Shown one piece after another: positions 4,664 through 64,000 of a stretch of 64,000 bases of DNA. Source of the DNA: Nannocystis pusilla (GTDB lineage: Bacteria > Myxococcota_A > Polyangia > Nannocystales > Nannocystaceae); assembly GCF_051105105.1 (NCBI RefSeq), contig NZ_CP185339.1, one strand, 5' to 3'. The position numbers were made by a program, and so were the translations under genes. Under the pieces are notes generated by a model, which was given only the letters and a program-made list of their open reading frames with translations, was not told the DNA's origin and did not search any database. Position 1 is the stretch's first letter. Each line of letters opens with the position of its first letter.

Positions 4664-4677
4664 GACTCGTGCTCCTT

Positions 4678-6492: not shown

Positions 6493-6620
6493 GATCTGCG
6501 TCCACGGCGCGCATCGTGAGGGGGGCTGTCTACTGAGGTTCCCTGTCCGCAGAAGACCCCACGCGCCGAGGTCGGGCCGTGACGCGCCCGCGAAAGCGTT
6601 GTATTACCGATCGTGGAGCG

Positions 6621-7151
6621 ATGAACCTCGTCCCGCCGACGTACATCTGCCTCGACCTGCCCGAGCCGCAGGCGTCGGAAGTGATGGCGCTGCGTCGCCG
6701 CTACTGTCAGCGCCTCAAAGACTTCCCGCCCGAGATCACGATCACGGGCTCGAGCGGCGTGGGCGCGATGCTGCCGCAGCTCCACTGGGACCGCGTCGAA
6801 CCCAAGCTCGAGGCCATCGCGCAGGAGTGGGCGCCGATCCGCGCGAGCCTCGGCGGGATGGTCCGCTTCCCGGACACCGACATCTTCTGCCTCAGCATGT
6901 CGGACCCGATGCCGTTCATGGCCCTCCACGAGGCGCTCAAACACTCGGGGATCGCGTTCGAGGAGAGCCAGTTCCCGTTCTTCCCCCACTGCACGATCCG
7001 CATGGCGGGGCCGCTCAGCGACGCGGACATCAGCGCGCTGTTCTCGTTGACCGTCCCCGGCGAGTTCACGATCGCCGAGCTGGCCCTGTATCAGCGCACG
7101 TCCGACGACCGGATCGTCCGCGTGTGGTCGCGGCCGCTCGCCGGCTCGTAG
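6621..7151 (+). CDS. 2H phosphoesterase (LigT-like) superfamily protein, tentative
   Basis: Start MNLVPPTYICLDL at 6621 (GGAGCG upstream) within track ORF 6579..7151. One clear H-x-T-x motif (PHCTIRM). The first motif is degenerate (EITITG). Confidence 0.4.
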   Translation: MNLVPPTYICLDLPEPQASEVMALRRRYCQRLKDFPPEITITGSSGVGAMLPQLHWDRVEPKLEAIAQEWAPIRASLGGMVRFPDTDIFCLSMSDPMPFMALHEALKHSGIAFEESQFPFFPHCTIRMAGPLSDADISALFSLTVPGEFTIAELALYQRTSDDRIVRVWSRPLAGS

Positions 7152-21564: not shown

Positions 21565-21625
21565 AAAGACCGGTGACGATGGACAGGTGCGAGAGGACAG
21601 GTCCGGAGGGACAGGCGGCTAGAAG
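21555..21625. repeat. Direct repeats GGACAGG x3 plus GGGACATG between the TBDR stop and the lipoprotein start
   Basis: gggacatgcgcaaaaagaccggtgacgatggacaggtgcgagaggacaggtccggagggacaggcgg. Confidence 0.6.
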
Positions 21626-24246: not shown

Positions 24247-24470
24247 CGGGATCGAACGGTTAAGAGATCCCAGCCGAGGCCGTCAAGCGAGCGGGCCGCT
24301 CTCGCACTCGAGTCGCTGTTGTCAGCCGACTGCAGTTGCAATGCGAGTGCATGTGCGGCTGGCACGCGAACGCGCTTCGGCGGGCGACAGGGGCGTGCGC
24401 GGGCGCGACGGGGCGATCGACCGCGCGAGCGAGCCGCGGCGGAGGCCGCCCGGTCGGAGTTAGGTCACGA

Positions 24471-36820: not shown

Positions 36821-37012
36821 GTGAACGAGCGCACGCAGGCGCAGGGGGCCGCGGGCGGGCCGCCCGCGAGCGCGCGTGCGTGAGGCCGAACGAGGTTCGG
36901 CGCAGCACGCGGACGGGCGAGAGGGCGCTTCGCCGCGCGCGTCGCCGAGCGGGGCCGGGGGGCGCGGGCGAACCTGGTGGTTTTCCCCGGCGGGCCACGC
37001 CAGGGTATTTGC

Positions 37013-40000
37013 ATGGGCGACGCAGGGACAGCCGACCCGGCGAAGTACCGCGCCACCGGACTGCTCAGTCAGAGCGCAGGCGCGGGCATCTACCGCGCGG
37101 TTCGGGTGGAGGACAACCGCGCGGTCGTCATCAAGACGCTCGACCCACGGCTGCGTCCGGCGCGGGAGCTCGAGCGCTTGCGGGCGGAGTACGAGCTCGG
37201 GCGGTCGCTCGACATCCCGGGGACGGTCAAGCCGATCGCGCTGGACACGTACCGCGGCATGCCGGCGCTGGTGCTCGAGCACTTCGAGGGGACGTTCCTC
37301 GAGCAGCTGCTCACGGCGACGCCGCTGCCGCTCGAGCGCTTCTTGACGCTGGCGATCGGCATCGCCGGGGCGGTCGAGGAGCTCCACCGGCGCGACGTGA
37401 TCCACAAGGACCTCAAGCCCGACAACATCGTGGTCGACCCGGTCCGCGGCGAGGTCAAGCTGGCCAACCTCGGGGTGGCGTCGCCGCGGCACCGCGAGCC
37501 CGGGCTCGCGCCGACCGCGGGGATCTTGACCGGATCGCTGCCGTACATGTCGCCGGAGCAGACCGGGCGGATGAACCGACCGCTCGACTTCCGCAGCGAC
37601 CTCTACTCGCTGGGCGTCACGTTCTATCGGATGCTCACCGGGCGCCTGCCGTTCCGCGCCAGCGATCCGCTGGAATGGATCCACTGCCACGTGGCGCGCC
37701 GCGTCACGCCGCCTTCGGCGCTGCGTCCGTCGGTGCCGGAGGTGGTGTCGGCGATCGTGGTAAAGCTGCTGGCCAAGGTCGCGGAGGACCGCTACCAGAG
37801 CGCGCGAGGGCTGCGTCGCGACCTCGAGCGGTGCCTGGCGGCATGGCACGCGCACGGGCGGATCGAGCCGTTCCCGCTCGGCGAGGAGGACCTGTCGGAG
37901 CGGCCCCGCGTGCCGCAGCAGCTGTACGGCCGCGAGCGCGAGCTGGCGGCGCTCCGCGGCGCGTTCGAGGCGATGGTCGAGACCGGAGCGCCGGGGGTCG
38001 TGCGCGTGTCCGGCTATTCAGGGGTGGGCAAGTCGACGCTCGTCCACAAGCTGCAACGACCGATCGTCCAGGCCCACGGGTTCTTCCTCTCGGGCAAGTT
38101 CGATCAGTACCAGCGAGGGATCCCCTACGCGACGCTCTCGCAGGCCTTCCGCGCCCTGGTCCGCGACATCCTCGCCGAGCCGGACGAGCGCGTCAGCGAG
38201 TGGCGCGGACGCTTGACGGCGGCGCTCGGCCTGAACGCGCGGCTGATCGTCGACATCATCCCGGAGCTGGCGCTCGTGATCGGCGAGCAGCCGCCCGTGC
38301 CCGAGCTGTCGGGGCCCGACGCGCAGAGCCGGTTTCACCTGGTCTTTCGCCAATTCCTCGGGGTGTTCACGGCCCGCGAGCACCCCGTGGCGCTGTTCCT
38401 CGACGACCTGCAATGGGTCGATTCGGCCAGCCTGGCGCTGCTCACCCACCTGGTCACGCACCCGGACGTCCATTACTTCCTGTGGATCTGCGCTTACCGG
38501 GACAACGAGGTGAGCGGGGCGCACCCCTTGATGACGGCGCTCGCGCGGGTGCGCGCGGCCAACGTGGCGGTGCGCGACATCTTCCTCGGGCCGCTGTCCG
38601 AGGAGCACCTCGCCGCGCTCGTCACTGCGACGTTCGGCGGGCGCGTCCGCGACGCGGCGGCGCTCGCCCGCCTGATCCACGGCAAGACCGCCGGCAACCC
38701 GTTCTTCGCGCTGCAGTTCTTGAATATGCTGCACCAGGAGGGGCTCATCGCGATCGACCTGTCATCCGGACTGTGGGCCGGCGACATCCCGCGGATCCAG
38801 GCCAAGACGGCGACGAGCAACGTCGCCGAGCTGATGGTGCAGACGCTGCAGCGCCTGTCACCGGCGGCGCGCGAGGCCCTCGAGCTGGCCGCCTGTCTCG
38901 GCGGCGTCTCCGAGCTCGGCCTGCTCGCGGCGCTCGCCGAGCGGCCGGAGGAGGAGGTACGGCGCGACCTGTCGGCGGCGGTCCAGGCGGGGCTGGTGCT
39001 GCGCGACGGCGACACCTACAAGTTCGTCCACGACCGCGTGCAAGAGGCGGCGTTCAGCCTGATCCCCGCGGCGGAGCGGGCGGCCGTCCACCTGCGGATC
39101 GGGCGGGCGCTGCTGGCTCGCCTGGCGCGCGAGGAGCTCGAGGCGCAGCTGTTCGAGGTCGCCGGTCATTTCGAAGCGGGGGCGCACCTGCTCGAGCCGA
39201 GCGAGGAGAAGGTGCGGGTCGCAGCGCTCCACCTGGCGGCCGGACGCAAGGCCCAGGCCGCGACCGCCTACGACGCGGCGGTCCGCTACTACTCGGCCGG
39301 CAGCGCGCTGCTCGGCGCCGAGGCGTGGGACGAGCAGCATTCGCTGGCCTTCTCCCTGGGGTTCGGGCGGGCCGAGTGTGAATATTTGCAGGGCCGATTC
39401 GACGCTGCCGAGTCGCAATTCGGGGCGCTGTTCGAGCACGCGCGGACCCGCCGCGAGCGCGCGGAGATCCGGCGGGTCGAGGTCGATCTGTTCACGAGCC
39501 GGCAGGAGCTCCGCACCGCGGTCGAGCGCGGGATCGAGGGCCTGCAGTGGCTCGGGGTCGAGGTGCCGGTCCACCCGACGCGCGCGCAGGTGCAGCGCGA
39601 GCTGCAGACCATCCAGGAGGCGCTCGGCGAGCGGCGGATCGAAGATCTCGTCGATCTGCCGCCGCTCGTCGACCCCGACATGCGCGCGGCGCTCGGGATC
39701 CTCGCGGTGCTGTTCGCGCCGGCGCTCAACACCGACCCCGAGCTGCCGTTCCTCTGCTATTGCCGCATGGTCGAGATCAGCCTGCGCCACGGCAACGGCG
39801 AGGCCTCGGCGCTCGGCTACGCGTACTTCGGGATGGTGCTGGGCCCGTCGTTCGGCCGCTATCGCGAGGGGTACCAATTCGGCAAGCTGGGGTACGACCT
39901 GGCGGAGCGGCTCGGGCTGGTGGCGTACCGCGCCAAGCTCCACTGCATCTTCGGCGATTGCATCTGCTTCTGGACGCAGCACCTGCGCGGCGCGCTGCGC

Positions 40001-42718
40001 TACCTCGACACCGCGTTCCAGACGGCGCTGCAGACCGGCGACATCACGTTCGCCTGCTACTGCTGCAATCATTACGTGGCCGACCTGCTGGTCCTCGGCG
40101 AGCCGCTCGACCAGGTCGACCAGGAGATCGAGCGCCGGCTGGACTTCACGCGCAACGCGAACTTCGCCGGCTCGTCGCAGGTGCTGGTCGGGATCCAGCG
40201 GCTGGTCCGCAACCTCCAGGGGCGGACCTGCAGCCGCGCGAGCTTCAGCGACGAGGTCTTCGACGACGAGGCGTACCAGGCGGAGATGACCGCGTCGCCG
40301 TGGATGGTGGTGAAGTGCTGGTACTTCATCATGAAGCTGCAGGGCCTGTTCCTCAGCGGCGATTACGCGGCGGCGCTGGCGGCCGGCGACGCGGCGGGGC
40401 CGCTGCTGTGGTGCTCGCTGGCGCATATCCAGGAGCCCGAGTACTGGTATTATTACGCGCTGGCGCTGGCGGCCCACGTGTCATCCTCCGCGCCGGTGCG
40501 GCAGCGAGAGGCGCTCGCGGTGCTGGCGCGCCACGAGGCGAAGCTGGCGGAGTGGGCGGCCTCCTGCCCGCAGAACTTCGGCCACAAGCACGCGCTGATC
40601 TCGGCCGAGATCGCCCGCCTCGAGGGCCGCGAGCGCGACGCCCTGCAATGCTACGACCGCGCGATCAAGGGGGCGCGGGAGCACGGCTTCGTGCAAAACC
40701 TGGCGATCGCCCACGAGCTGCTGGCCCGCTTCTACCGCGATCGCGGGCTCGAGATGCTGGCGGAGACGCACCTGCAGGCCGCGCGCGCCGGCTACTTGAA
40801 GTGGGGCGCGCACGGCAAGGTCCGCCAGCTCGACGAGCAGGAGGAGGGCCTGTCCGAGGCGCCGCCGGGCGGCAGCCAGGCCAGCGACACGGTCACCGCG
40901 GAGCACATCGATCTGCTGGCGGTGACCAAGGCGTCGCAGTCGATCTCGAGCGAGATCGTGCAGGAGAAGCTGCTCCGCCGCTTGCTCAGCGTGGTGCTCG
41001 AGCAGAGCGGGGCCCACACCGCGCACCTCATCGGGGTCCGGCACGGCGAGCTGACGCTCGAGGCCAGCGCCACGCTCGACGAGGCGGGGATGCGCGCCGA
41101 CCTGCGCCGACGCGGGCCCGAAGAGCTCGCCAGGCTGGTCCCGGCGTCGATCGTGCAATACGTCCAGCGCACCGGGGAGCGCGTGCTCCTCGACGACGCG
41201 CGCGCCGACCCGGGTCGGTTCGGCCTCGACGAGTACGTGGCGCAGGTCCAGCCGCGCTCGCTCCTGTGCTTCCCGATCCGCCGCCGCGGCACGGTGCAGG
41301 ACGTCCTCTACCTCGAGAACAGCCTGGTCCCGAGCGCGTTCCGCAGCGAGCACCTGACGGTGCTCGAGCTGCTGGCCGCGCAGGCCGCGATCTCGCTCGA
41401 GAACGCGACGCTGCTGACGCAGGAGCAGGCGGCGCGGCAGGCGGCCGAGGCGGACCACCGGCGCGCGGCGTTCCTCGGCGACGCGAGCAAGCTGCTCGGC
41501 GAGTCGCTCGACTATGAAGAGGTGCTGCATCGGCTGGCCGACCTGTGCGTGGGCTCGTTCGCCGACTGGTGCGCGATCGATATCGTCGAGGGCCAGGAGA
41601 TCCGCCGCCGCACGTCGGCGTCGGCCAGCTCCGCGGAGGCGGGGGTGCTCGAGGAGATGCGCGCCCGCTACCCGCCGCGCCTGGATTCACCGCACCCGTC
41701 GTCGACGGCGATCCGCGCCGGCGCGCCGCTCCTCGTCGAGATGACCGACGAGAACCTCGCGCGCTACTGCGTCGACGCGGGCCACGTCCGGCTGCTGCGC
41801 GAGCTCGGGGTCAGGACGGCGATCGTGGCGCCGCTCCCGGCCGGCTCGCGGATCATCGGCGCCATCACTCTCGGCTCGCGGCGCCCCGAATTCCGCTACA
41901 CGACCGCCGACCTCGAGCTGCTGGTGGAGCTGTCCCGCCGCGCGGCGATGGCGATCGACAACGCCAGGCTGTACCGCCAGACCCAGGCGGCGCTGCGGCT
42001 GCGCGACGAGTTCCTGTCGGTCGCGTCGCACGAGCTGCGCACGCCGATGACGTCGCTGACCCTCGCGCTGCAGACGATCGTCAAGCGGACCCCGAGCGGC
42101 AAGCCGCTCGATCCGCAGGTGACGAGCAAGCTGCTCGATCTGGCGATCCGTCAGTCGGGGCGGATGAACCGGCTGATCGGCGATCTCCTCGACGTGTCGC
42201 GCATCGAGACCTGGCAGCTCGCGCTGTCGCTCGCCGAGGTCGAGCTGAGCGGCCTCGTGCGCGAGGTCGTGGCCCGGTTCCAGCCCGACCTGGCGCGCGC
42301 CGGCAGCTCGGCGACGATCGAGGCCCCGGCGCCGGTGGTCGGACGCTGGGACCGCTCGCGCCTCGAGCAGGTCGTCTCCAACATCCTCTCGAACGCGGCC
42401 AAGTTCGGGGCCGGGGCGCCGATCGAGATCGCGGTGGTGCGCGCCGGCGACGTGGCCCGGTTGACGATCCGCGACCACGGGCTCGGCATCGACCCGGACC
42501 GCTTGCCGCGGATCTTCGACCGCTTCGAGCGCGGCGTGTCGGCGCAGAACTACGGCGGGCTCGGGCTGGGCCTCTACATCGCGCGCAGGATCGTCGAGGG
42601 CCACTGTGGTACGATCCGCGCCACGAGCACGCCGGGCGAGGGGACGACGTTCATCGTCGAGCTGCCGTGCACGAGCGCGCCTTCGCCCGCGGCGACCGAC
42701 GGAGGTCCACAGTCATGA
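37013..42718 (+). CDS. Giant multidomain signalling protein: Ser/Thr kinase, P-loop AAA/NTPase, TPR-like region, GAF domains, and histidine kinase (HisKA + HATPase_c)
   Basis: Kinase motifs HKDLKPDNIVV, GSLPYMSPEQ. P-loop VSGYSGVGKSTLVHKL. H-box LSVASHELRTPMTSL. C-terminal G-boxes (GLGLGLYIARRIVEGHCGTIRAT). The start could also be 36977. Confidence 0.85.
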   Translation: MGDAGTADPAKYRATGLLSQSAGAGIYRAVRVEDNRAVVIKTLDPRLRPARELERLRAEYELGRSLDIPGTVKPIALDTYRGMPALVLEHFEGTFLEQLLTATPLPLERFLTLAIGIAGAVEELHRRDVIHKDLKPDNIVVDPVRGEVKLANLGVASPRHREPGLAPTAGILTGSLPYMSPEQTGRMNRPLDFRSDLYSLGVTFYRMLTGRLPFRASDPLEWIHCHVARRVTPPSALRPSVPEVVSAIVVKLLAKVAEDRYQSARGLRRDLERCLAAWHAHGRIEPFPLGEEDLSERPRVPQQLYGRERELAALRGAFEAMVETGAPGVVRVSGYSGVGKSTLVHKLQRPIVQAHGFFLSGKFDQYQRGIPYATLSQAFRALVRDILAEPDERVSEWRGRLTAALGLNARLIVDIIPELALVIGEQPPVPELSGPDAQSRFHLVFRQFLGVFTAREHPVALFLDDLQWVDSASLALLTHLVTHPDVHYFLWICAYRDNEVSGAHPLMTALARVRAANVAVRDIFLGPLSEEHLAALVTATFGGRVRDAAALARLIHGKTAGNPFFALQFLNMLHQEGLIAIDLSSGLWAGDIPRIQAKTATSNVAELMVQTLQRLSPAAREALELAACLGGVSELGLLAALAERPEEEVRRDLSAAVQAGLVLRDGDTYKFVHDRVQEAAFSLIPAAERAAVHLRIGRALLARLAREELEAQLFEVAGHFEAGAHLLEPSEEKVRVAALHLAAGRKAQAATAYDAAVRYYSAGSALLGAEAWDEQHSLAFSLGFGRAECEYLQGRFDAAESQFGALFEHARTRRERAEIRRVEVDLFTSRQELRTAVERGIEGLQWLGVEVPVHPTRAQVQRELQTIQEALGERRIEDLVDLPPLVDPDMRAALGILAVLFAPALNTDPELPFLCYCRMVEISLRHGNGEASALGYAYFGMVLGPSFGRYREGYQFGKLGYDLAERLGLVAYRAKLHCIFGDCICFWTQHLRGALRYLDTAFQTALQTGDITFACYCCNHYVADLLVLGEPLDQVDQEIERRLDFTRNANFAGSSQVLVGIQRLVRNLQGRTCSRASFSDEVFDDEAYQAEMTASPWMVVKCWYFIMKLQGLFLSGDYAAALAAGDAAGPLLWCSLAHIQEPEYWYYYALALAAHVSSSAPVRQREALAVLARHEAKLAEWAASCPQNFGHKHALISAEIARLEGRERDALQCYDRAIKGAREHGFVQNLAIAHELLARFYRDRGLEMLAETHLQAARAGYLKWGAHGKVRQLDEQEEGLSEAPPGGSQASDTVTAEHIDLLAVTKASQSISSEIVQEKLLRRLLSVVLEQSGAHTAHLIGVRHGELTLEASATLDEAGMRADLRRRGPEELARLVPASIVQYVQRTGERVLLDDARADPGRFGLDEYVAQVQPRSLLCFPIRRRGTVQDVLYLENSLVPSAFRSEHLTVLELLAAQAAISLENATLLTQEQAARQAAEADHRRAAFLGDASKLLGESLDYEEVLHRLADLCVGSFADWCAIDIVEGQEIRRRTSASASSAEAGVLEEMRARYPPRLDSPHPSSTAIRAGAPLLVEMTDENLARYCVDAGHVRLLRELGVRTAIVAPLPAGSRIIGAITLGSRRPEFRYTTADLELLVELSRRAAMAIDNARLYRQTQAALRLRDEFLSVASHELRTPMTSLTLALQTIVKRTPSGKPLDPQVTSKLLDLAIRQSGRMNRLIGDLLDVSRIETWQLALSLAEVELSGLVREVVARFQPDLARAGSSATIEAPAPVVGRWDRSRLEQVVSNILSNAAKFGAGAPIEIAVVRAGDVARLTIRDHGLGIDPDRLPRIFDRFERGVSAQNYGGLGLGLYIARRIVEGHCGTIRATSTPGEGTTFIVELPCTSAPSPAATDGGPQS

Positions 42719-54516: not shown

Positions 54517-54526
54517 TTTGTCGTTC

Positions 54527-54928
54527 ATGGGTGAGGTACTCCAGCTCAGCGATCTGCAGCTCGGCCTGCTGCGGATCTTGTGGGACCGCGGGGAGGCGAC
54601 GGCGCTCGAGGTGCATGCGGCTCTGGTCGAGCAAGAGCGGGGGCTCGCGCCGACGACGGTGTCGACGATGCTGTCGCGGCTGGAGAAGAAGGGGACCATC
54701 GCGCACCGCACGGAGGGCCGGCAGTTCATCTACCGGGCGCTCGTCTGTGAGGTGGACGTGAGGCGCTCGATGCTGGGCAGGCTCACCGACTACTTCTTCG
54801 GCGGGGACGTGGCGGCGCTGGTCAGCCACCTCGTCGAGGGCCGCGACGCCGAACCGGACGACGTTGCGCGCCTGCAACAACTATTGGCCGAACGATCCGG
54901 CGGAGCTGAGGAACACGACGATGTTTGA
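54527..54928 (+). CDS. BlaI/MecI/CopY-family transcriptional repressor
   Basis: MGEVLQLSDLQLGLLRILWDRGEATALEVHAALVEQERGLAPTTVSTMLSRLEKKGTIAHRTEGRQFIYRALV. The track ORF begins 3 codons earlier at a TTG. Confidence 0.8.
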   Translation: MGEVLQLSDLQLGLLRILWDRGEATALEVHAALVEQERGLAPTTVSTMLSRLEKKGTIAHRTEGRQFIYRALVCEVDVRRSMLGRLTDYFFGGDVAALVSHLVEGRDAEPDDVARLQQLLAERSGGAEEHDDV

Positions 54929-57143
54929 TCTTGCGATCGATCCTGCCGGCCTCGCCGGTCTCGCGGCGCCTGCCGCTCACACGACGGTGAGCTGGCTCGG
55001 CACCTACTTCGTCCACTCGACGGTGCTCATCGGCGGCGTGTGGATGTTCAGCCGCTTCCTGCCGCTCGACGCGCTGACCCGCAGCTTGCTGTGGAAGACA
55101 TCGCTGGTCGGCGGGCTGTTCACGGCGACGCTGCAGACGGGGCTCGGGGTCGAGCCGATGTTCGGCCGCGTCACCGTGGCGGCGAGCAGCCCGGACCTGG
55201 GCGCGCCCACGACGGCCCCGGCGCCGCCGCCGGTGGTGGAGGAGGAGCCGGCGACGCTGCTGGTGCCGTTCACCCGCGCGTGCGTCGGCTGCGAGTCGCA
55301 CGTGGTAGTCGTCAGCGACGACGACATCACGGCGGTGTTCGCCTCGCCGCCGCTGTTCGTCGACGCGCCGGGCTGGGCGGTCGCGCCGACGCCGGCGCTG
55401 ATGCCCGCGCCGACGACCGAGCCGCCGCTGGCGGCCGCGCCGATGCAGATCGCTACGGCGGGTCCGGTCGGGGGCGTGAGCGCGGCGGTGTGGGCATTCG
55501 CGGGGCTGTTCGTGTTCGGCGCCGCGGCCTCGCTCGGCCGGCTCGGGATGACGTTCTCTCGCCTGCGCCGCGGGCTCCGCGGTCGTCGCCTGCTCGGCTC
55601 GGGCTCGCTGCGCGAGCGCCTGACGCGGCTGCTGGCCCACGCGCGGCTGCCCGGCCACAGCGTCACGCTGAGCGAGTCGGCGGACATCAGCTCGCCCATC
55701 GCCCTCACCGGCCGCGAGATCGTGGTGCCGGAGCAGGTGCGCGAGCTGGCGCCGCGGCAGCAGGAGGCGATGCTGGCCCACGAGCTGGCCCACGTGCTGC
55801 GCCGCGATCCGGCGTGGCAGGTGATGGCGGCGTTCGTCGAGTCGCTGCTGTTCTTCCAGCCGCTCAATCGAGTGGCCCGTCGCGGCATGCAGGAGGCGGC
55901 GGAGGAGCTGTGCGACGACTGGGCGGTCCGCCACACCGGTTCGGAGGTGCACCTGGCGCGCTGCCTGGCCGAGGTCGCGGCGTGGCCTGGCCATCGGGAC
56001 ATGTCGGCGTTCGCCAGCCCGATGGCGGGGCACGCCTCGCAGCTGGTGCGCCGGGTGCAGCGCCTGCTCGACGTGCACCTGCGCGACCGCGGGCTGTGGG
56101 CCCGGCGCTGGCGGGTGGCCCTCGGCGCGGCGCTGCTGGCGATGGTGACGTTCGGCGCGCCCGGGCTGTCGATCGCGGCCGAGGCGCAAGATGCCCCCGA
56201 GTGGCCGACGACGCCCGACAACGGGCCGGCGCCGCAGCCGTCGCTGTCGTTCGTCCACGTGCCCGAGACGCCGATCGTGGCCGTGCGGACGCCGCATAGC
56301 CACGCGGTCCACGGGCACGACATCATCGTCGTCGAGCATGCGCAGGAGCTGACCCGCAAGCAGAAGCGACTGCTGCGCCGCGCCGAGCGGCACGCCCGCA
56401 AGGCGGCCAAGCTGCGCGCCAAGAGCGGGCTGTACGCGGTGCCGGCGACGCACGCGGTGTACGTGCCGGTGTCGCACGTGACGCCGCCGACGCCGCCGAC
56501 GCCGCCGACGCCGCCGACGCCGCCGACGCCGCCGACGCCGCCGACGCCGCCGAGCTTCAAGGTCGTCGTCGCGCACGACCACGACGACTGCGACGACGAC
56601 GATCACGACGTGATGGTCCACCGGATGGCCGTCCCGCACGTGGCCGTCCACCCGCCCGTGTTCCACGTGCCGGACATCGACGAGGAGGCGATCGCGGCCC
56701 AGGCCGAGGCGATCGCGGCCCAGGTCGAAGCCCAGCTCCAGGGCCTCGACGAGCAGATCGAGCGCGAGCTGGAGAGCATCGACTTCGACAAGATCGCCGC
56801 CGACGTGGAGCGCGGGGTCAAGGCGTCGCTCCGCGGCGTCGAGCGGGCCCGCGAGGACGCCGAACGGGCCCGCGAAAACGCCGAGCGGGCGCGCGAGCGG
56901 GCGGACCGGGCGCGCGAGCAGGGCGACCGGGCGCGTGAACAGGGCGACCGGGCGCGCGAGCGGGCCGAGCGGGCGCGCGAGCGGGCCGAGCGGCAGGCCG
57001 AGAAGGGCCGCCGCAAGGCCGACGCTTCGCGGGCCGCGGCCGCGGTCCGCAGCGCGGTCGACGAGGCGCTGCGCGACGGAGTGATCGACGCCGAGGAGCA
57101 GCGCAAGATCAGCGAGGCGGCCCGCCAGGTCCGCATGAAGTGA
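54921..57143 (+). CDS. BlaR1/M56-family membrane metallopeptidase signal transducer with unusual C-terminus ((PPT)8 tract plus charged coiled-coil RAREQGD repeats)
   Basis: Start MFDLAIDPAG overlaps the repressor stop. Four TM helices. HELAHVLRRD zinc motif. A 9-bp tandem repeat (ccgccgacg x8, ~56473-56550) encodes PPTPPT... C-terminal ERARENAERARERADRAREQGDRAREQGDRARERAERARERAERQ. Confidence 0.8.
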   Translation: MFDLAIDPAGLAGLAAPAAHTTVSWLGTYFVHSTVLIGGVWMFSRFLPLDALTRSLLWKTSLVGGLFTATLQTGLGVEPMFGRVTVAASSPDLGAPTTAPAPPPVVEEEPATLLVPFTRACVGCESHVVVVSDDDITAVFASPPLFVDAPGWAVAPTPALMPAPTTEPPLAAAPMQIATAGPVGGVSAAVWAFAGLFVFGAAASLGRLGMTFSRLRRGLRGRRLLGSGSLRERLTRLLAHARLPGHSVTLSESADISSPIALTGREIVVPEQVRELAPRQQEAMLAHELAHVLRRDPAWQVMAAFVESLLFFQPLNRVARRGMQEAAEELCDDWAVRHTGSEVHLARCLAEVAAWPGHRDMSAFASPMAGHASQLVRRVQRLLDVHLRDRGLWARRWRVALGAALLAMVTFGAPGLSIAAEAQDAPEWPTTPDNGPAPQPSLSFVHVPETPIVAVRTPHSHAVHGHDIIVVEHAQELTRKQKRLLRRAERHARKAAKLRAKSGLYAVPATHAVYVPVSHVTPPTPPTPPTPPTPPTPPTPPTPPSFKVVVAHDHDDCDDDDHDVMVHRMAVPHVAVHPPVFHVPDIDEEAIAAQAEAIAAQVEAQLQGLDEQIERELESIDFDKIAADVERGVKASLRGVERAREDAERARENAERARERADRAREQGDRAREQGDRARERAERARERAERQAEKGRRKADASRAAAAVRSAVDEALRDGVIDAEEQRKISEAARQVRMK

Positions 57144-58265: not shown

Positions 58266-58874
58266 TTACCCGCTCTTCTCCCGCGAGGGATGAGCCCCGA
58301 CGCCGAACTGGTACCCGAACGCTGCGATGTCGGCCGCGTAGATCTCTTCGACGATCGACCTGGTCTCGTCTTCGTAATAGTCAGTGTAGAATTTGTGTTC
58401 AGTCTTGAAGACATGCGGCAACTGTCTGGCCCCGATCTGAAGATGTGAGCAGATCCTGGCGAAGTCGCTCTGAAGCGCCTCGAAGCGGCCGATGAAATCG
58501 ACGGCGATCGTTCCCCCGACGCTCAGGCGTGTCACCTGCGGCGACAACGCGTCTTCTAGCCACAGTGCCGAGGATGACAGCCTGACCCCGTTCTTCAGCC
58601 GTCGTAGCATCTCGGAGAAGTCATAGTCGAACAGACGCTGATGATCTCTGCTCCAGAAGTACCTGGACACCAACCAGTCCCATGGATTGCGGACGAACGC
58701 GAACTTGTAGTACGTGCGAAACCTGTCGGGGAAATTTTCGCTGTAGAAGGCCGCCGTCGCGTGTTTCAGATCCACGTCCCTTCGATCGGCCGCAGCATCG
58801 AAGACCTTTTCGATGCTGGTTCCCCCCGTCTTGTTGATATGGATAAAGATGAATTTGTGAGCATCGGAGATCAT
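58266..58874 (-). CDS. Sulfotransferase family protein (PAPS-dependent; 5'-PSB-like KTGGTS and 3'-PB-like RNPWDWLVSRY motifs)
   Basis: 202 aa starting MISDAHKFIFIHINKTGGTSIEKVF. GC visibly lower (~55%) than surrounding genes. Confidence 0.7.
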   Translation of the reverse strand: MISDAHKFIFIHINKTGGTSIEKVFDAAADRRDVDLKHATAAFYSENFPDRFRTYYKFAFVRNPWDWLVSRYFWSRDHQRLFDYDFSEMLRRLKNGVRLSSSALWLEDALSPQVTRLSVGGTIAVDFIGRFEALQSDFARICSHLQIGARQLPHVFKTEHKFYTDYYEDETRSIVEEIYAADIAAFGYQFGVGAHPSREKSG

Positions 58875-58901: not shown

Positions 58902-59774
58902 TCAGATGGATGGGGCGTCCGGCTCGCGGTCGGCGCCACCGATGAGGATCGCATACACGACGGCCTCCGTGGCCGGCTCCAGGCCGAGCAGCGCGTTGAA
59001 GGGCTCGTCCCAGAAGCCGCCGACGGGCACCGCGTGAAGGTCGAGCGCCGTGGCCGCGAGCAGGATGTTCTGCGCGATGTGCCCGGCTTCCAGCAGCGCG
59101 AATCGATACCCGCGCTCGAGGTACTTCGCCTGGACGCGGGCGAACACGACGGTGAGCGCGAGCACCAGCGGAGGCCCGGAATCGAAGAGATCGGGCGGCA
59201 GGAACTCTCGCATCACGTCGAAGCCGGCGACCGGACGCACGAGCTCGAGGGCGTGATCGAGCGCGGCGTAGTGATACACGCCAGGAGTGAGCGCTTCGAG
59301 CGAGAAGACGAGCGGGTAGACCTCCACCGGGTAGAGCCCGCCGGGCGACGGCGCGGCGCGGCGTGGAACCTCCAGCGGCGCGGTGACGCCCGCCGAGAGC
59401 TCGAGCAATTTCGCCAGCTCGCGCTGGGAGACGGTTCTACGCGAGAACGTCCGCGCCGATCGCCGCCGGCGGATCAACGCCTCGAAGCTGGCGGTCAGCG
59501 GCTCCGGCCGCGGCAGAGCGATCGTGGGCGCGCCGGGGTATCGCTTGTAGTCGAGGTTGAGCGTGAGGGCCTCGACCTCCGCGACGGTCAGGGTGCCGGT
59601 CCACTCCGGACCCATGGAGCTGTGCTGGTGATAGACGCGTGAGGCCGGCCAGCGGCACTCCGCGGGCAGGCCGAACGGCGCGAATTGAGCCCGGCGCTCC
59701 ACGTCCATGCGCTGGCGCAGCGCCTCCAACGCGCGGCCGATCTGCTCGGCCGTCCACGGCGCTTCGTCGTTCAC
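58902..59774 (-). CDS. SagB-type dehydrogenase / nitroreductase-superfamily protein (McbC/SagB-like)
   Basis: GTG start (VNDEAPWTAEQ...) with GGAGGTG 5 nt upstream, in the frame of track ORF 58902..61061. RRRSARTFS...RRAAPSPGGLYPVEVYPLVF...AKYLERGYRFALLEAGHIAQNILLAATALDLHAVPVGGFWD matches the SagB-type dehydrogenase domain. Confidence 0.7.
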   Translation of the reverse strand: MNDEAPWTAEQIGRALEALRQRMDVERRAQFAPFGLPAECRWPASRVYHQHSSMGPEWTGTLTVAEVEALTLNLDYKRYPGAPTIALPRPEPLTASFEALIRRRRSARTFSRRTVSQRELAKLLELSAGVTAPLEVPRRAAPSPGGLYPVEVYPLVFSLEALTPGVYHYAALDHALELVRPVAGFDVMREFLPPDLFDSGPPLVLALTVVFARVQAKYLERGYRFALLEAGHIAQNILLAATALDLHAVPVGGFWDEPFNALLGLEPATEAVVYAILIGGADREPDAPSI

Positions 59775-61061
59775 GTCGCACCTCCGAGGTTCTGCTCGGG
59801 CGCAACGACGGCGAGGAGCCCGAGACCGACGAGTTTTTCGGCGAGGGCGAGCTTGGCGGGGGCGGTCAGGCCGTCGTCGATGTCGGCGATCCGAAACGGA
59901 CCCTCCGCGGCGAGGATGCCACGCAAGGCCGCCTCTGCGACCCTGCCTGTCCGGAGCATGCCGCCTCCGGCGAGGACGAGCACGGCTGCGTCGGCGTCTC
60001 GCGTGAGCTGGAATTCGAGCTCCGGCCGGCGCGCCACCAGGGTCTGCAACGAGATCTCGTGCGCCATGAACGACGATTCCAGGCGGGCGAGCGGAGGAGC
60101 CATCATTCCCTGCAGGTGGCGCTGCGCGAGGCCCTCGCACAGATCCTCGAGACTCAAGTTCGCAAGCGCCTCGCGCACCCGCTCGAGGCGGGCCGCGAAC
60201 TCTCGGCGGAGCGGCTCGTGCCGATGTCCGTCGAACAACGCGCCCGCCGGGAGCGGGGCCGTGAAATCGCGGGTCCGGGCGAGGCTCGCCCGCAGGAGGT
60301 CCAGCACGGAGCTCCACTGGAACGGCTTGAACACGACAGTGAGGGAGAACGAGGCTGATTCGTTCGTGACCTCGTGGACGAAGCCGCGGGGGAGGTAGAG
60401 CAGGTCGCCGGGTTCGAGGACCAGGTCGTGCGTCGGCTCCCCGAGGTCGGCCCGGGAGTGCATGCCCGGACCCTCGGCCTCGACGCGGGGAAAGATCTGC
60501 CATCGCTTCGAACCGGAGATCTGGAGCGTGAAGATCTCCGTCTCGTCGTGATGCGGGCCCAGGCCGGCCGCCCTGGGGGGCGCGATGTAACACGAGAGCG
60601 AATCTTCTGGGGTGCTGGAGCGTGCGCTCCATCTGCCGCAACATCGCCATCACGGGGGCGCCGGGATCCAGGAAGCATTCCATGCGCCGCAGCCGAATCG
60701 GGCTTCCGAGCAGCACACGCTCGTGGAGCTCGTCGAGCGCGGCCGGCGGAGCTGCCGGCCAATGGCCGTCCTGCGACGGTGTGGTGATCGAGCGCCGGCC
60801 GAATATCCCCTCTATCGAGAGGTAGCGCTCGACCTCGGCGAGGTGGATGAGGTCTTTATAGTAGTCGCGCCTCCCGCGGGCCAGGTGGAGCGGGCGTCTC
60901 CCCCAGTACTCCGAGCAGAACGCGTGGAACGGCAGCGGCTCGATGAGCGCGGCGAACGACCAGGGCGCCGCGAAGACGGCGGAGCCCTCGCCGCGAACGA
61001 GGAAACGCTCCCCGAGGTCGAGGTCACGCGGAAGCCCAGCGGGACGGCCGTGCATCGACAA
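59771..61061 (-). CDS. JmjC/cupin-4-like Fe(II)/2OG oxygenase (HHDE facial triad) with apparent 1-nt frameshift at a G/C4 run (~60610)
   Basis: N-terminal part MSMHGRPAG...FHAFCSEYWGRRPLHL...MERTLQHP in the frame of ORF 58902..61061. Continues in another frame as EDSLSCYIAPPRAAGLGPHHDETEIFTLQISGSKRWQIFP...LEPGDLLYLPRGFVHEVTN (track 59771..60463). Deleting one C in cacccca joins them. Confidence 0.65.
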
Positions 61062-61328
61062 TAGGTGGGACGGAATGTCGGGGGCTCGATGGAGCGAATG
61101 ATCGAACGTCGTTGGCAGCCGCCGTAAGGCGTTCTTCTGGTGTGATTGTTGGTTCAGAACCGAGCCTCTCGAATTCGACCTGCCGCGCCGTCGGGCGGCC
61201 GGACGTGGCGATGATTCAGCGCTGCTGTAACGAAGCTAACCTCACTCGATGATTCGCCGGCGACATATTCGACAAGGGCTCGGACTCGGCTCATTTAACA
61301 TACCGCCAAATGCACCCGGAGGATTGGG
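61062..61328. promoter_or_regulatory. Divergent promoter region between the oxygenase/SagB/sulfotransferase operon and the precursor-peptide genes; AT-richer; GGAGGATTGGG-ATG RBS for the precursor
   Basis: 267-bp intergenic stretch with reduced GC. A strong SD lies immediately before 61329. Confidence 0.5.
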
Positions 61329-61610
61329 ATGGCAGACAAGACGAAGCAGGCCAAGTTCGACGAGATTTTGGGACGCGCGATCCGTGACCGAGAGTTCAGG
61401 ATGAAGCTCGTGAACAACCCGAAGGCGACGGCCGCAGAGGTCGGGCTGACGGAAGAGGAGGCGAACCTGATCACGGGCGGTCTGGCGATCGGGAATACGT
61501 TGCTCTCGCCGGGCAGCGTCGCGTGGTGCACGGCCAAGACGTGCTACGAGAAGGGCGATTCGCGCTCTCTCGACATCGACCCGGTCAAAAAAGGCGGCGG
61601 TCAGCCGTAG
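61329..61610 (+). CDS. Putative RiPP precursor peptide with NHLP (nitrile-hydratase-leader-like) leader, GG cleavage motif and Cys/Ser/Thr core
   Basis: MADKTKQAKFDEILGRAIRDREFRMKLVNNPKATAAEVGLTEEEANLITGG | LAIGNTLLSPGSVAWCTAKTCYEKGDSRSLDIDPVKKGGGQP. The leader aligns residue-for-residue in character with the NHLP/TOMM-type leader pattern (..KAW.DeaFkq.LL.nPkaa..e.G..lpe). Strong RBS. Confidence 0.6.
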   Translation: MADKTKQAKFDEILGRAIRDREFRMKLVNNPKATAAEVGLTEEEANLITGGLAIGNTLLSPGSVAWCTAKTCYEKGDSRSLDIDPVKKGGGQP

Positions 61611-61622
61611 GCGAGGCGACAC

Positions 61623-61874
61623 GTGCGGTCATTCGCCGAGAGCTGCGCCTTACTCGACAGCATCGTCGGTCGCTGCGTGCGCGAGCCGGAGTTCGCGGAG
61701 CGCGTGCTCGACGAGCCCGAGGCGGCGCTCGCCGCCTACGGGCTCGCCAGACACGAGCTCGACGACTTCCTCGCGCTCGCCGGCGACCACAAGCAGGAGG
61801 CCGCGGAGACCTGGGCGGCGATCCGGGCGGGCATCGAAGCCCGGCGGCGGGCGCGTCGTCATCCTCGCGGATGA
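61623..61874 (+). CDS. Second NHLP-like leader-containing small protein (GTG start), possible second precursor or degenerate copy
   Basis: VRSFAESCALLDSIVGRCVREPEFAERVLDEPEAALAAYGLARHELDDFLALAGDHKQEAAETWAAIRAGIEARRRARRHPRG. The central segment parallels the leader of the upstream peptide. No GG/Cys-rich core is apparent. Confidence 0.4.
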   Translation: MRSFAESCALLDSIVGRCVREPEFAERVLDEPEAALAAYGLARHELDDFLALAGDHKQEAAETWAAIRAGIEARRRARRHPRG

Positions 61875-61890: not shown

Positions 61891-62535
61891 TCACGGCTCG
61901 GCCCAGAGCCTCAGCAGTCCATCGTAGGACCTGCGGAGCCGATCGCCTTCTGCCTGGGTCCCGCCCCCGAAGAGCTCGAGGTAGTGCAGCGCGCAGCCCA
62001 TGTCGTAGAGGATCTCTCGCTGGGCCGGGTCGCGGACCCGGCTCTGAACTCGAAGTGTGCCGCTCCAGCGCGTCCCACGAGTCACTGGAGCGACACGATG
62101 CGACGCCGACGCAGGGAGCACGACGCACACGCCAGCGCCTTCCCTGTACGTCTCGTCGCCGTAGCCGCTGTCGATCAGGAGCTCGCCGCCGTCATAGTCG
62201 GCCGGATCGCTCAGGAGGACGGTGGCGAACGCGTCGACGCGAGCCAGAGCGGTGCGCTCGCCGCCTGGGGGCGGGTGAATATCGGTACAGCGCCCCATTT
62301 CGTGGCACGCGAACGTCACGGGGGCGACTGCGCTCGGCTGGACGCCGAGGCAGAAGAGGGGGTGGGCACGCAGCGCGTCCGCCAGGCGCCGGCCGGCCTC
62401 GCCCTCGACCTCTGCGTCGACTTCGCTCGCTACCCGCGAGGTCGGTCTGCCGCCGCGAACGCGACCGGAGAGCGATTCTGCCAGTCGGGCGGCCGCCGCG
62501 GCGGGCAGCACGTCGTGCAGGCGGATGATCATCAT
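61891..62535 (-). CDS. PKHD-type (PiuC/YbiX-like) Fe(II)/2OG hydroxylase paralog with atypical first metal motif (HEM instead of HxD)
   Basis: Start MMIIRLHDVLPAAAAARL in track ORF 61891..62913. LLSDPADYDGGELLIDSGYGDETYREGAGVCVVLPASASHRVAPVTRGTRW parallels PiuC-type LFLSDPxxYxGGELVV...SxLHxVxPVTRGxR. Confidence 0.65.
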   Translation of the reverse strand: MMIIRLHDVLPAAAAARLAESLSGRVRGGRPTSRVASEVDAEVEGEAGRRLADALRAHPLFCLGVQPSAVAPVTFACHEMGRCTDIHPPPGGERTALARVDAFATVLLSDPADYDGGELLIDSGYGDETYREGAGVCVVLPASASHRVAPVTRGTRWSGTLRVQSRVRDPAQREILYDMGCALHYLELFGGGTQAEGDRLRRSYDGLLRLWAEP

Positions 62536-62611: not shown

Positions 62612-63259
62612 ATGCCCATGTGCTTCGTCATCAAGAATGTATTGAGTCTGGAAGACCTCACGCAAATCCGCGCGTCGCTGATGAATGAGGCGTTCATCGA
62701 CGGCCGGGCAACGTCGACGCTCGCAGGCAAGAATAACCTCCAGCTCCCGCAAGAGGGGGCGACGTACGAGGCGGCCAGCGCGCTGGTGCGGCGCCGCCTG
62801 CTGGCGAACGAGAGCTTCCAGCTCGCCGTGTACCCGCGAACCCTCACGTCGCCGCTCTTCAGCAAGTATGAGATGGGGATGGAATACCCCGAGCACGTCG
62901 ACAGCGCGGTCATGGGCGGGTGCCGGGCCGACGTCGCGGTGACGCTGTTCCTCAGCGAGCTCGATGCCTATGAAGGCGGCGAGTTGGTCGTGGACACCGG
63001 GAATGGCGAGCGTCGCTATCGACTCGACGCGGGCGACGCCATCGCCTATCCGGCGTCGACGCTCCATCGCGTGGCTCGTGTCGCCCGCGGGACGCGGCTC
63101 GTCGCGGTGATGTGGGTGCAGAGCCTGATCCGCGATCCCGCGAAGCGACAGCTCCTCCACGACCTCGGCTCCGCCGTGAATGACCTGAAGGAGAGCGTCT
63201 ACAGCGCGCGAGTGCGCCGCAGCCACGCGAACCTGCTGCGACTGTGGGCCGAGCTCTGA
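62612..63259 (+). CDS. PKHD-type (PiuC/YbiX-like) Fe(II)/2OG hydroxylase, canonical HVD...H...R
   Basis: Start MPMCFVIKNVLSLEDLTQIRASL in track ORF 62525..63259. EHVDSAV, LFLSELDAYEGGELVVDTGNGERRYRLDAGDAIAYPASTLHRVARVARGTRLVAVMWVQSLIRD closely follows the E. coli PiuC/YbiX pattern. Divergent from the paralog, sharing a ~76-bp intergenic region. Confidence 0.75.
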   Translation: MPMCFVIKNVLSLEDLTQIRASLMNEAFIDGRATSTLAGKNNLQLPQEGATYEAASALVRRRLLANESFQLAVYPRTLTSPLFSKYEMGMEYPEHVDSAVMGGCRADVAVTLFLSELDAYEGGELVVDTGNGERRYRLDAGDAIAYPASTLHRVARVARGTRLVAVMWVQSLIRDPAKRQLLHDLGSAVNDLKESVYSARVRRSHANLLRLWAEL

Positions 63260-63295: not shown

Positions 63296-64000
63296 TCAAA
63301 GCGCGCCGCGGAGGTGCTCCACCGTGCGCAGCGCCAGCGCGATCACGGCGAGGGTCGGATTCGCATAACCTCCGGTGGGGAACACGGAGCTGCCGGCGAT
63401 GAACAGGTTCTCTATCCCATGGACCTTCGCGTCGCGATCGACGACCCCAAAGCGGGGATCCGTGCTCATGCGCGTCGTCCCGAGGTGATGGCAACCCCAG
63501 GGGCGATAATGGTCCTTGTTGGTGGGCTGCGAGGGCCAGGGAGCGTCCCTCGTCACTGCGAGCTCGACGCGGCCCTCGCCGTGGCGCTCGAGGGCGGCCG
63601 CGACGATCTCGGCGGTGGTGCAGATGCTGTCCCAGTCGAGCGGCGTGAGCTGCCAATCGAGGCGAGCGACGGGCACCCCGAAGGCGTCGAGCTCGTCGGC
63701 GAGGGTCACGCGGCTGTCCGGGTTCGGGCTTTGCTCGGCGCGCAGCAGCAGCCGCACGCGGGCGACGTCCGGATCGGAGCTGCCCTCCGGGGCGTCGTCC
63801 GGCCACAGTTGTACGGTCGCGTTGAGCAGACGATGAGCGCGCTGCGCCGCTGCGGTCAGGCCCAGCGCCGACATGGTCGCGTGGCCGAGGGCCGGGTCGA
63901 TGTGCTCTTGATAGGCGTGCCACCGCCCTCGGCTGGGCAGCGCGGCGATGCCGATCTGGACGTGCGGGTGCTCCATGAACCAGCGGCCCACATGATCGTG
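63296..64000 (-). CDS. GMC-family FAD oxidoreductase, C-terminal part (5' end beyond window)
   Basis: Track ORF 63296..63991 is open to the window edge. HHLGTTRMSTDPRFGVVDRDAKVHGIENLFIAGSSVFPTGGYANPTLAVIALALR is the GMC_oxred_C signature. Confidence 0.8.
   Translation of the reverse strand, partial: HDHVGRWFMEHPHVQIGIAALPSRGRWHAYQEHIDPALGHATMSALGLTAAAQRAHRLLNATVQLWPDDAPEGSSDPDVARVRLLLRAEQSPNPDSRVTLADELDAFGVPVARLDWQLTPLDWDSICTTAEIVAAALERHGEGRVELAVTRDAPWPSQPTNKDHYRPWGCHHLGTTRMSTDPRFGVVDRDAKVHGIENLFIAGSSVFPTGGYANPTLAVIALALRTVEHLRGAL

Follow-up and report, generated by a model that had tools for sequence, protein, structure and literature searches.

The DNA analysed here (hereafter the window) is a 64,000-nucleotide (nt) stretch of Nannocystis pusilla contig NZ_CP185339.1 (RefSeq assembly GCF_051105105.1). 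Two small open reading frames (ORFs), pep1 and pep2, lie in tandem near its right end, at 61329-61874. They resemble the leader portions of peptides of the nitrile hydratase leader peptide (NHLP) clan, and we consider here whether they belong to a cluster for a peptide that is synthesized ribosomally and then modified post-translationally (RiPP). The features of the pair are as follows.

61329-61610, plus strand: pep1, with an ATG start and a TAG stop at 61608-61610, 93 amino acids (aa); a precursor-like peptide that scores below threshold within the Os1348 / Frankia_peptide branch of the NHLP clan
61329-61481, plus strand: leader domain of pep1, residues 1-51, ending in LITGG
61524-61556, plus strand: core motif of pep1, WCTAKTCYEKG, residues 66-76, near-invariant and presumed to be the modification site
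61557-61607, plus strand: variable C-terminal tail of pep1, 17 residues
61623-61874, plus strand: pep2, with a GTG start, 83 aa; a leader-only paralogue with a predicted Os1348-like helical fold
61062-61328, no strand: divergent intergenic region between the JmjC, SagB and sulfotransferase genes on the minus strand and pep1-pep2 on the plus strand, holding the Shine-Dalgarno sequence of pep1

The two tandem ORFs, the GTG start of the second, the 12-nt spacer between them (61611-61622) and the peptide strings quoted in a preliminary description of this locus, made from the DNA letters alone, all agree with the translations. A Shine-Dalgarno sequence, GGAGGA, lies at 61318-61323, 5 nt 5' of the pep1 ATG, and a Shine-Dalgarno-like GAGG at 61613-61616, 6 nt 5' of the pep2 GTG. 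Third-position G+C is 0.85 in pep1 and 0.87 in pep2, and the neighbouring genes are alike in this respect; the intergenic region upstream of pep1 has a G+C content of 0.59, compared to 0.716 in the whole window. In this intergenic region, neither a sigma-70-type consensus promoter nor an intrinsic terminator was found, and an Rfam scan in and around the locus gave no match. The NCBI record that is 100% identical to pep1 is named as a hypothetical protein of N. pusilla. Orthologues of both ORFs are found in other genomes and in metagenomes at 45-69% identity, with tblastn E values of 1e-17 to 1e-32.

High-G+C genomes yield many spurious ORFs, and the ORF list of the window contains many that overlap one another, which would fit a view of both ORFs as chance open frames in G+C-rich DNA. 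This view is refuted by the conservation data: orthologues are known from Methylobacterium and more than 15 metagenome contigs, and they are conserved both as proteins and in gene order. In addition, both ORFs have a ribosome-binding-site motif and the expected codon-position G+C, and the fold of pep2 is predicted with confidence. The small ORFs are kept in syntenic loci in our tblastn census, a point on which the preliminary description had made its reading depend. We conclude that pep1 and pep2 are genuine, conserved genes. They share one reading frame, with the TAG and four codons between them. Stop-codon read-through joining pep1 to pep2 was considered and rejected, as the frame is shared in 3 of 14 tandem pairs (13 other loci and the window), which does not exceed the one-in-three chance.

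Both peptides had been labelled as having NHLP-type leaders, to be checked by profile alignment against TIGR03793 (canonical NHLP) and TIGR03798 (Nif11). Against TIGR03793, with a cutoff of 50.9 bits, pep1 scores 21.3 bits (E 1.8e-4), below the cutoff, and pep2 has no match at E values up to 10. Neither peptide matches the Nif11 models TIGR03798 and PF07862, in NCBIfam and Pfam, respectively, at E values up to 10. The scores are higher for NF038399 (Os1348 family NHLP clan, cutoff 40), at 36.2 bits for pep1 (E 4.6e-9) and 25.1 bits for pep2 (E 1.4e-5). Orthologues of pep1 and pep2 encoded at one forest soil locus (L102) reach this cutoff, at 40.4 and 40.5 bits, respectively, and an orthologue at the same locus scores 17.2 bits against TIGR03793. 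The orthologue of pep1 in Methylobacterium aquaticum bears the NCBI name "Os1348 family NHLP clan protein". Both peptides also match PF14407 (Frankia_peptide) at E values of about 1e-5, with scores below the gathering cutoff of 48 (pep1 25.7 bits, E 1.4e-5; pep2 24.5 bits, E 3.3e-5), and precomputed database annotation assigns PF14407 to pep1 and most of its relatives. Frankia_peptide was reportedly predicted as a RiPP family by Iyer et al. in 2009. When the two families were compared with hhalign, residues 5-50 of pep1 aligned with residues 6-51 of pep2 at 97.2% probability (E 3e-11). The profile comparisons indicate that the pep1 leader and pep2 are homologous, with a likeness beyond chance, and that both belong, as divergent members, to the NHLP clan's short-leader Os1348/Frankia_peptide branch, and not to the canonical NHLP or Nif11 peptides. 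The NHLP label is therefore appropriate at the level of the clan but not of the family.

A search with the single pep1 sequence found pep1 alone; an alignment-based search found the 46 relatives that we aligned. Their N-terminal ~50 residues are conserved, with D11, G15, A17, R19, F23 and R24 invariant. After the leader, 32 of the 46 have a GGLAIGxSLLxP block, in place of which a second subclade has NFxxDAADEFFGKVVGG; in the window, the sequence at the leader end is GLTEEEANLITGG. The motif [WYF]C[TS]x[KR][TS]CxE, in its fuller form [WYF]C[TS]x[KR][TS]CxExG, is present in 42 of the 46, the remaining four being near-variants or truncated. Past the motif, the tails range from 0 to 56 residues and diverge fully across subclades, and seven proteins stop exactly at the motif. 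An AlphaFold2 (AF2) model made with the family alignment has helices at residues 2-19, 21-29, 31-38 and 42-58, with a predicted local distance difference test score (pLDDT) of 75-82 over the leader, and is disordered (pLDDT <50) from residue 56 on, a part that includes the core motif. The pep1 family profile matches PDB entry 6LK7 (Os1348) at an E value of 2.6e-7, as well as nitrile hydratase alpha chains. By itself, pep1 matches the proteusin precursor 8TB1 at an E value of 0.0014, and a weak alignment pairs AEGELSDEDLGAVTGGLTV of that precursor with the stretch of pep1 that begins at AE and ends at LITGGLA.

Based on this alignment and model, pep1 is built like a RiPP precursor, albeit one whose core is strikingly invariant. 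This build bears out its earlier description as a RiPP-precursor-like peptide with an NHLP-clan leader and a Cys/Thr core. The functionally constrained element is the WCTxKTCxExG motif and not the whole 42-residue "core", as the region after the motif is variable or missing. The Gly-Gly site that had been paired with this core is shared by most of the family (in 37 of 45 relatives it precedes the motif by 5-15 residues) but is absent in 6 of 45. In several metagenomic relatives (P0078, P0086, P0092, P0102, P0147 and L004, at 5953-7047 of that locus), SagB carries at its C-terminus an in-frame pep1 homologue that has both the leader and the CTxKTC core, an enzyme-substrate fusion recalling the borosin OphMA. 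Such fusions occur in five clusters of relatives.

An invariant core is unusual for a RiPP. One interpretation of this is that CTxKTC(Y) descends from the metal site of nitrile hydratase alpha, C(T/S)LCSC(Y), and that pep1, with pep2, is a small metal-binding or Cys-oxidised protein and not an azole peptide. In a MAFFT alignment, WCTAKTCY (61524-61547, residues 66-73) is in register with VCTLCSCY of two genuine nthA products, giving C-T-x-x-[ST]-C-Y, and the distance from the shared DP(E/D)F to the motif is 44 residues in pep1 compared to 40 in nitrile hydratase alpha. The alignments of pep1 to Pfam NHase_alpha and TIGR01323 extend from residues 7-8 to residue 73. However, these matches fall far short of the cutoffs and lack significance (E 0.02-0.04), and HMMER local alignments of the pep1 family profile with real nitrile hydratase sequences end before the motif. 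The central metal-binding Cys of nitrile hydratase is Lys in pep1. Moreover, according to Table 3 of Haft et al., it is the "ELS..L..V.GG" block that corresponds to the C-terminal nitrile hydratase motif, so that the match would be non-collinear, and the orthologous clusters encode complete azole-forming machinery. We consider such a non-azole protein very unlikely. Canonical NHLP leaders are said to lack the metal-site region of nitrile hydratase.

A phmmer search across 1.84 billion protein representatives found 19 relatives of pep2, nearly all of 74-104 aa and aligned over their whole length. Conservation spans L10 to W64, with D12, G16, C18, F24, V28, P32, L36, Y39, D48, F49, L52 and W64 invariant or nearly so. 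Past W64 the tails are 10-30 residues long and rich in Arg, Gln and Ala, and no motif common to the relatives was found in them. The Arg-rich tail of pep2 was correctly described as lacking Cys and GG; its two Cys residues (C8 and C18) are in the helical N-terminal part, and GG is missing from pep2 altogether. The AF2 model of pep2 is all-helical and confident (pLDDT 95.8, predicted template modelling score 0.81), with helices at residues 4-20, 22-30, 32-35, 43-55 and 57-79. A Foldseek search with this model gave chains A to C of 6LK7 as the top matches (probability 0.93-0.97, template modelling (TM) score 0.55-0.66, root-mean-square deviation 2.6-2.9 Å over 64-67 residues), followed by the NHLP proteusin precursor 8TB1 and then by SonA borosin precursors bound to SonM. 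In its model, pep2 folds from end to end in an Os1348-like manner and has no core. It is found as a single copy per cluster and always together with pep1. In two proteins (P0182, which is 4014-5426 of locus L104, and P0184), the pep2 domain forms the C-terminal domain of an EryCIII-like GT1 glycosyltransferase, and L104 has no separate pep2 gene.

The peptides occur in Nannocystis, Methylobacterium and numerous metagenome contigs from soil. We compared clusters from a Logan soil contig (L001), M. aquaticum (L002, L003 and L005), JGI data (L004, L103 and L104) and an ENA forest soil sample (L102), in which SagB homologues of the window's clade, at 45-69% identity, are part of a recurrent cluster. 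A metagenome scan gave 17 loci, mostly of 1-3 kb, which are informative for pep1-pep2 adjacency and not for whole clusters. In the tblastn census of loci with a pep1 homologue, pep1 is directly followed by pep2 in 13 independent metagenome loci (L085-L088, L090-L092, L094-L098 and L102), with the pep1 stop separated from the beginning of the pep2 match by a few nt to ~155 nt, mostly <50 nt. L001 and L005 have both genes in one cluster, but apart from each other. The usual order, as in the window, is SagB (-) and JmjC (-), then pep1 and pep2, then a degenerate PKHD gene (-), and then an intact PKHD gene (+) and a sulfotransferase gene (+). The degenerate PKHD gene is beside or after pep2 in 11 other loci, directly so in 10 tandem loci and a little farther off in L001 and L005.

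The genes common to these clusters encode JmjC proteins (often two or three), SagB, a YcaO protein of 727-752 aa, the PKHD protein with its degenerate paralogue, and a protein of 427-433 aa. YcaO is encoded in L001, L002/L005, L102, L103, L104 and L004. The YcaO protein of L102 is a fused cyclodehydratase of the thiazole/oxazole-modified microcin (TOMM) type (TIGR03604 279.7 bits, cutoff 219), with a leader-binding domain (TIGR03882 59 bits, cutoff 36.9). An ABC exporter of 563-585 aa without a C39 domain is also often encoded. Tailoring genes vary and include those for a sulfotransferase, PhyH, a GT1 glycosyltransferase, an MvdD-like ATP-grasp enzyme, a radical SAM enzyme and a GMC oxidoreductase. 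The 427-433-aa protein, which has no Pfam or NCBIfam match, always adjoins a second JmjC gene in complete clusters (L001 2080-3378, L002 11205-12503, L102 1085-2386 and L103 317-1600) and may be a new enzyme or a protease. Among the matches listed, 79 generic SagB loci (L006-L084) contained no pep1 or pep2 homologue, and only L005, from M. aquaticum, was a true relative; since these 79 loci have neither peptide, pep1 and pep2 appear to be specific to one SagB clade. In L091 (5331-8912), pep1 and pep2 are followed by RadC-like and Mu-transposase genes in place of PKHD genes, the cluster apparently having been truncated by a mobile element. A look for other partner enzymes on the flanks of L091 and L095 turned up only unannotated ORFs, RadC, the Mu transposase and a Kazal-domain protein.

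In the window, the pair is flanked by the following genes.

58266-58874, minus strand: sulfotransferase (Sulfotransfer_2; PF03567 55.9 bits), the last cluster gene on the left side
58902-59774, minus strand: SagB-family peptide dehydrogenase with a flavin mononucleotide (FMN) nitroreductase fold (TIGR03605 118.2 bits, cutoff 78.4; PF00881 83 bits)
59771-61061, minus strand: JmjC_2 (cupin-4) Fe(II)/2-oxoglutarate (2OG) oxygenase (PF08007 83.6 bits on the frame-corrected translation)
61891-62535, minus strand: degenerate PKHD/PiuC-type 2OG oxygenase paralogue (NF003974 111 bits, cutoff 143), convergent with pep2
62612-63259, plus strand: intact PKHD-type Fe(II)/2OG dioxygenase (NF003974 217.8 bits, cutoff 143; PF13640 44 bits)
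63296-64000, minus strand: C-terminal part of a GMC oxidoreductase (PF05199 92 bits), whose gene runs off the window

SagB is encoded 1.5 kb from pep1, passes TIGR03605, and is 100% identical to a "SagB/ThcOx family dehydrogenase" of N. pusilla. The genes to the left of the sulfotransferase gene (YceI, BlaR1 and BlaI) are unrelated to the cluster. The two PKHD/PiuC-type genes are divergent paralogues. The protein encoded at 62612-63259 keeps its iron ligands (EHVD...H), whereas its paralogue at 61891-62535 has IHPPP in place of HxD. Ligands have also been lost in orthologues of the latter, which argues that it is probably a conserved pseudo-enzyme and not a product of local decay. The window's GMC protein is 61% identical to that encoded beside the SagB-pep1 fusion of L004, and the cluster probably extends past the right end of the window at this gene. 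The short Sulfotransfer_2 gene of the window is beside SagB, while four relatives (L086, L090, L092 and L102) have a 373-aa Sulfotransfer_3 gene after PKHD; this suggests that a sulfation step has been kept through non-orthologous genes. A single extra nt near 60605-60608 (coding strand AGA[A]GAT) interrupts the JmjC gene; it does not lie in a long homopolymer. With tblastn, the gene is matched by two high-scoring pairs that differ in frame and meet at 60606-60610. Once an A is removed, QHPRDSLSCYI is recovered and lines up with the L102 orthologue, and the corrected protein reads QHPRDSLSCYIAPP. The extra A may reflect either a genuine pseudogene or an assembly error.

We favor, with moderate confidence, the interpretation that pep1 and pep2 form a co-transcribed pair in an azole-type RiPP cluster resembling those for TOMMs and linear azol(in)e-containing peptides (LAPs), in which pep1 is the substrate and pep2 a non-substrate leader paralogue. 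The case for pep1 as the substrate draws on the conservation of its motif in 42 of 46 relatives, its folded leader and disordered core in the AF2 model, and the SagB-pep1 fusions. Its ~50-residue helical leader of the nitrile hydratase clan would be a handle for the enzymes, and its disordered part would present W-C-T-x-K-T-C-(Y/N)-E-x-G. Based on knowledge of TOMMs (Haft et al. 2010 and references therein), a fused E1-YcaO enzyme, seen in the orthologous clusters and not in the window, would first cyclodehydrate Cys67/Thr68 and Thr71/Cys72, and the SagB dehydrogenase (58902-59774) would then oxidise the azolines to azoles. In this way a pair of adjacent bis-heterocycles, one on either side of x-Lys, could arise from the C-T and T-C dipeptides of the motif. 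Hydroxylation by the JmjC and PKHD Fe(II)/2OG oxygenases could then follow, and after it O-sulfation by the sulfotransferase. O-sulfation is suggested by the retention of a sulfotransferase function, provided by Sulfotransfer_2 in the window and by Sulfotransfer_3 in relatives. Fe/2OG oxygenases of the JmjC family and of the PKHD type are known to hydroxylate side chains in proteins and RiPPs, CzlI being an example (PMC11575548). Leader removal, if any, may take place elsewhere, as no protease is encoded here, similar to the pos and pfl clusters. The idea that pep1 could be an azol(in)e or hydroxylation substrate, put forward in the preliminary description, fits this context: SagB, JmjC and two PKHD-type genes flank the peptides, and orthologous clusters add a fused TOMM cyclodehydratase. 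Of the marks of a TOMM/LAP locus, a SagB-type FMN dehydrogenase beside the precursor is present in the window, and a YcaO protein with an E1-like leader-binding partner or domain is absent from its 64 kb and present in orthologous clusters. No C39-peptidase ABC transporter was found in the window, and the ABC exporters of the orthologous clusters (563-585 aa) have only ABC_membrane and ABC_tran domains.

In this interpretation, pep2 would serve as an adaptor, a chaperone or a leader mimic, and its partner would be either the leader of pep1 or an enzyme. This proposal rests on the lack of a conserved modifiable segment in pep2, its presence once per cluster with pep1, the tight linkage of the two genes, and the dimerisation of the Os1348 fold via hydrophobic helices. 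Modeling and conservation suggest that pep2 is probably an accessory partner and not a second precursor; of the roles offered for it at the outset, the evidence favors a recognition partner over a decoy or a second precursor.

Several observations weigh against this interpretation, and those concerning pep2 bear on an alternative, namely that pep2 is a second precursor, either contributing to a two-component product or modified on its short C-terminal tail or at its near-invariant Cys18. Os1348/PosA is itself a precursor, with a folded ~79-residue leader, and is modified only near its C-terminus (PMC12636437; PMC7726476); the folded 80-residue body of pep2 is thus compatible with a substrate role. 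The variability of the pep2 tails is typical of RiPP cores, and the glycosyltransferase-pep2 fusion could be an enzyme-substrate fusion parallel to SagB-pep1. In addition, the near-invariant Cys18 of pep2 is replaced by Ala in pep1, within a GRAxRD motif, and Haft et al. (2010) found TIGR03795 peptides in tandem pairs only, some of which are fused, and suggested that their products consist of two peptides (PMC2887384). However, no motif of any kind is conserved past W64 in pep2, some orthologues stop 10 residues past this Trp, inside the predicted last helix, and the tails show no excess of Cys, Ser or Thr. Cys18 is inside helix 1 of the confidently folded AF2 domain, and pep2 is always a single copy alongside pep1. 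We consider a precursor role for pep2 unlikely.

Other points against the favored interpretation concern the completeness of the pathway and its chemistry. No YcaO, ABC transporter, protease or conserved 432-aa gene was found in the 64-kb window, and the frameshifted JmjC gene may mean that the N. pusilla copy of the pathway is impaired. The nitroreductase domain of PflD carries out SagB-type dehydrogenation without YcaO (PMC12636437), which would provide an alternative chemistry for SagB. Furthermore, we found no product in the searchable literature for any member of this cluster type. The first of these points could also mean that N. pusilla has a decaying or partial version of the cluster, in which the peptides are conserved by descent and the pathway is incomplete. 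The JmjC frameshift lies outside any long homopolymer; the YcaO, ABC exporter and 432-aa genes, absent here, are within ~10 kb of the peptides in relatives; and the cluster at L091 is truncated beside a Mu transposase. Nevertheless, pep1, pep2, SagB, both PKHD genes and the sulfotransferase gene are intact ORFs with normal codon bias, the cluster continues past the window at a GMC gene that is cluster-associated in L004, and the frameshift could be an assembly error in a long-read genome. A decaying or partial copy is, in our judgment, improbable.

The nearest known counterparts of pep1 and pep2 in leader fold and family are Os1348/PosA from Pseudomonas sp. Os17 and PflA, which are the precursors encoded by the pos and pfl RiPP clusters. 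Os1348 (PDB 6LK7) is a six-helix protein that forms a homodimer in the crystal via hydrophobic helices (PMC7726476). The C-terminal segment of Os1348/PosA is hydroxylated, dehydrogenated and oxidatively cleaved (bioRxiv 10.1101/2025.10.30.685615, PMC12636437). Like the pep1-pep2 clusters, the pos and pfl clusters have a SagB-type nitroreductase-fold enzyme and Fe/2OG-type hydroxylation, and lack a protease and a C39 transporter (PMC7726476; PMC12636437). In contrast, they have a HEXXH hydroxylase, a fusion of a multinuclear non-heme iron-dependent oxidative enzyme (MNIO) with a nitroreductase, and a GNAT protein, but lack YcaO, and in their core ARMD comes after poly-Gln. The pep1-pep2 system has a stand-alone SagB, JmjC and PKHD enzymes, a sulfotransferase, a fused TOMM YcaO in orthologous clusters, a CTxKTC core and a core-less paralogue.

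Canonical NHLP peptides (TIGR03793; Haft, Basu and Mitchell 2010) are similar to pep1 in motif 1 (xxxAxxDxEFxxxL), in the leader end "L(S/T)xEExxLIxGG" and in their link with YcaO and SagB. Their leader is ~87 residues long, compared to ~51 in pep1, and they have a hypervariable core and a C39-ABC transporter, whereas pep1 has a near-invariant core and no C39-ABC transporter, and Gly-Gly is missing in some relatives. NHLP-Burk peptides (TIGR03795) resemble the window pair in having two tandem NHLP-clan genes by a fused cyclodehydratase (here in orthologues), with fused versions in some species. Both NHLP-Burk members are held to be precursors, one of them ending in Cys or Cys-Cys; here the conserved core is in pep1 only, and the fusions join peptides to enzymes (SagB-pep1 and glycosyltransferase-pep2) and not peptide to peptide. 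The split or fused borosin systems SonA/SonM and OphMA and the N-terminal domain of TglI, whose LigA-like helical domains bring RiPP substrates to enzymes, share the LigA-like / NHLP class of helical folds, as reclassified in ECOD (PMC12353581), and the borosin logic of fusing an enzyme, a helical domain and a core recalls the SagB-pep1 fusions. However, no methyltransferase is encoded here, and the likeness of pep2 to SonA is weak (Foldseek E >1, TM ~0.4). The PF14407 family was defined in an ATP-grasp context (PMC8939145), which differs from the context here, as an MvdD-like ATP-grasp enzyme is encoded only in distant relatives (L004, L098 and L104) and not in the window.

Several elements of this system are already known: the leader family has a name, a crystal structure exists for its namesake, whose chemistry has been partly characterised since 2025, and the link between the NHLP clan and TOMMs dates from 2010. 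In the searchable literature, we found no description of a cluster combining YcaO/SagB with JmjC, PKHD, pseudo-PKHD and sulfotransferase genes, nor of the CTxKTC core, the core-less paralogue or the enzyme-peptide fusions. The pep1-pep2 pair marks a compact, widely scattered family of RiPP clusters that departs from the usual RiPP pattern in its near-invariant core, core-less leader paralogue, conserved pseudo-oxygenase and natural enzyme-precursor fusions. The 11-residue motif is a concrete target for heterologous expression and mass spectrometry, and the pair provides a clean system in which to ask what a stand-alone leader-like protein does. In annotation, the two peptides should be corrected to Os1348-branch NHLP-clan peptides, and not canonical NHLP or Nif11 precursors. 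If pep2 is an obligatory partner, genome-mining tools that count each NHLP-like small ORF as a precursor would need adjusting.

We speculate further that pep2 represents a new kind of RiPP accessory, a leader-only paralogue forming a helical heterodimer with the pep1 leader, much as Os1348 dimerises with itself, and so presenting the invariant CTxKTCxExG to enzymes for azole formation, hydroxylation and sulfation. In that case the product would be conserved, cofactor-like or metal-binding, with a single target, and not a hypervariable antibiotic, and its core could derive from the nitrile hydratase metal site. We regard this extended proposal as doubtful.

Elsewhere in the window, 36884-42718 (plus strand) encodes a 1944-aa signalling protein with a Ser/Thr kinase, an AAA_16 ATPase, GAF domains, HisKA and HATPase_c, and 21619-24282 (minus strand) encodes an 887-aa protein with a TonB C-terminal domain together with the Plug and beta-barrel of a TonB-dependent receptor. 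Just left of the YceI-like gene and the cluster boundary, 54518-57143 (plus strand) encodes a BlaI-type repressor and a BlaR1 (M56 peptidase) sensor, the latter with a long C-terminal extension rich in Pro/Thr and Arg/Glu.

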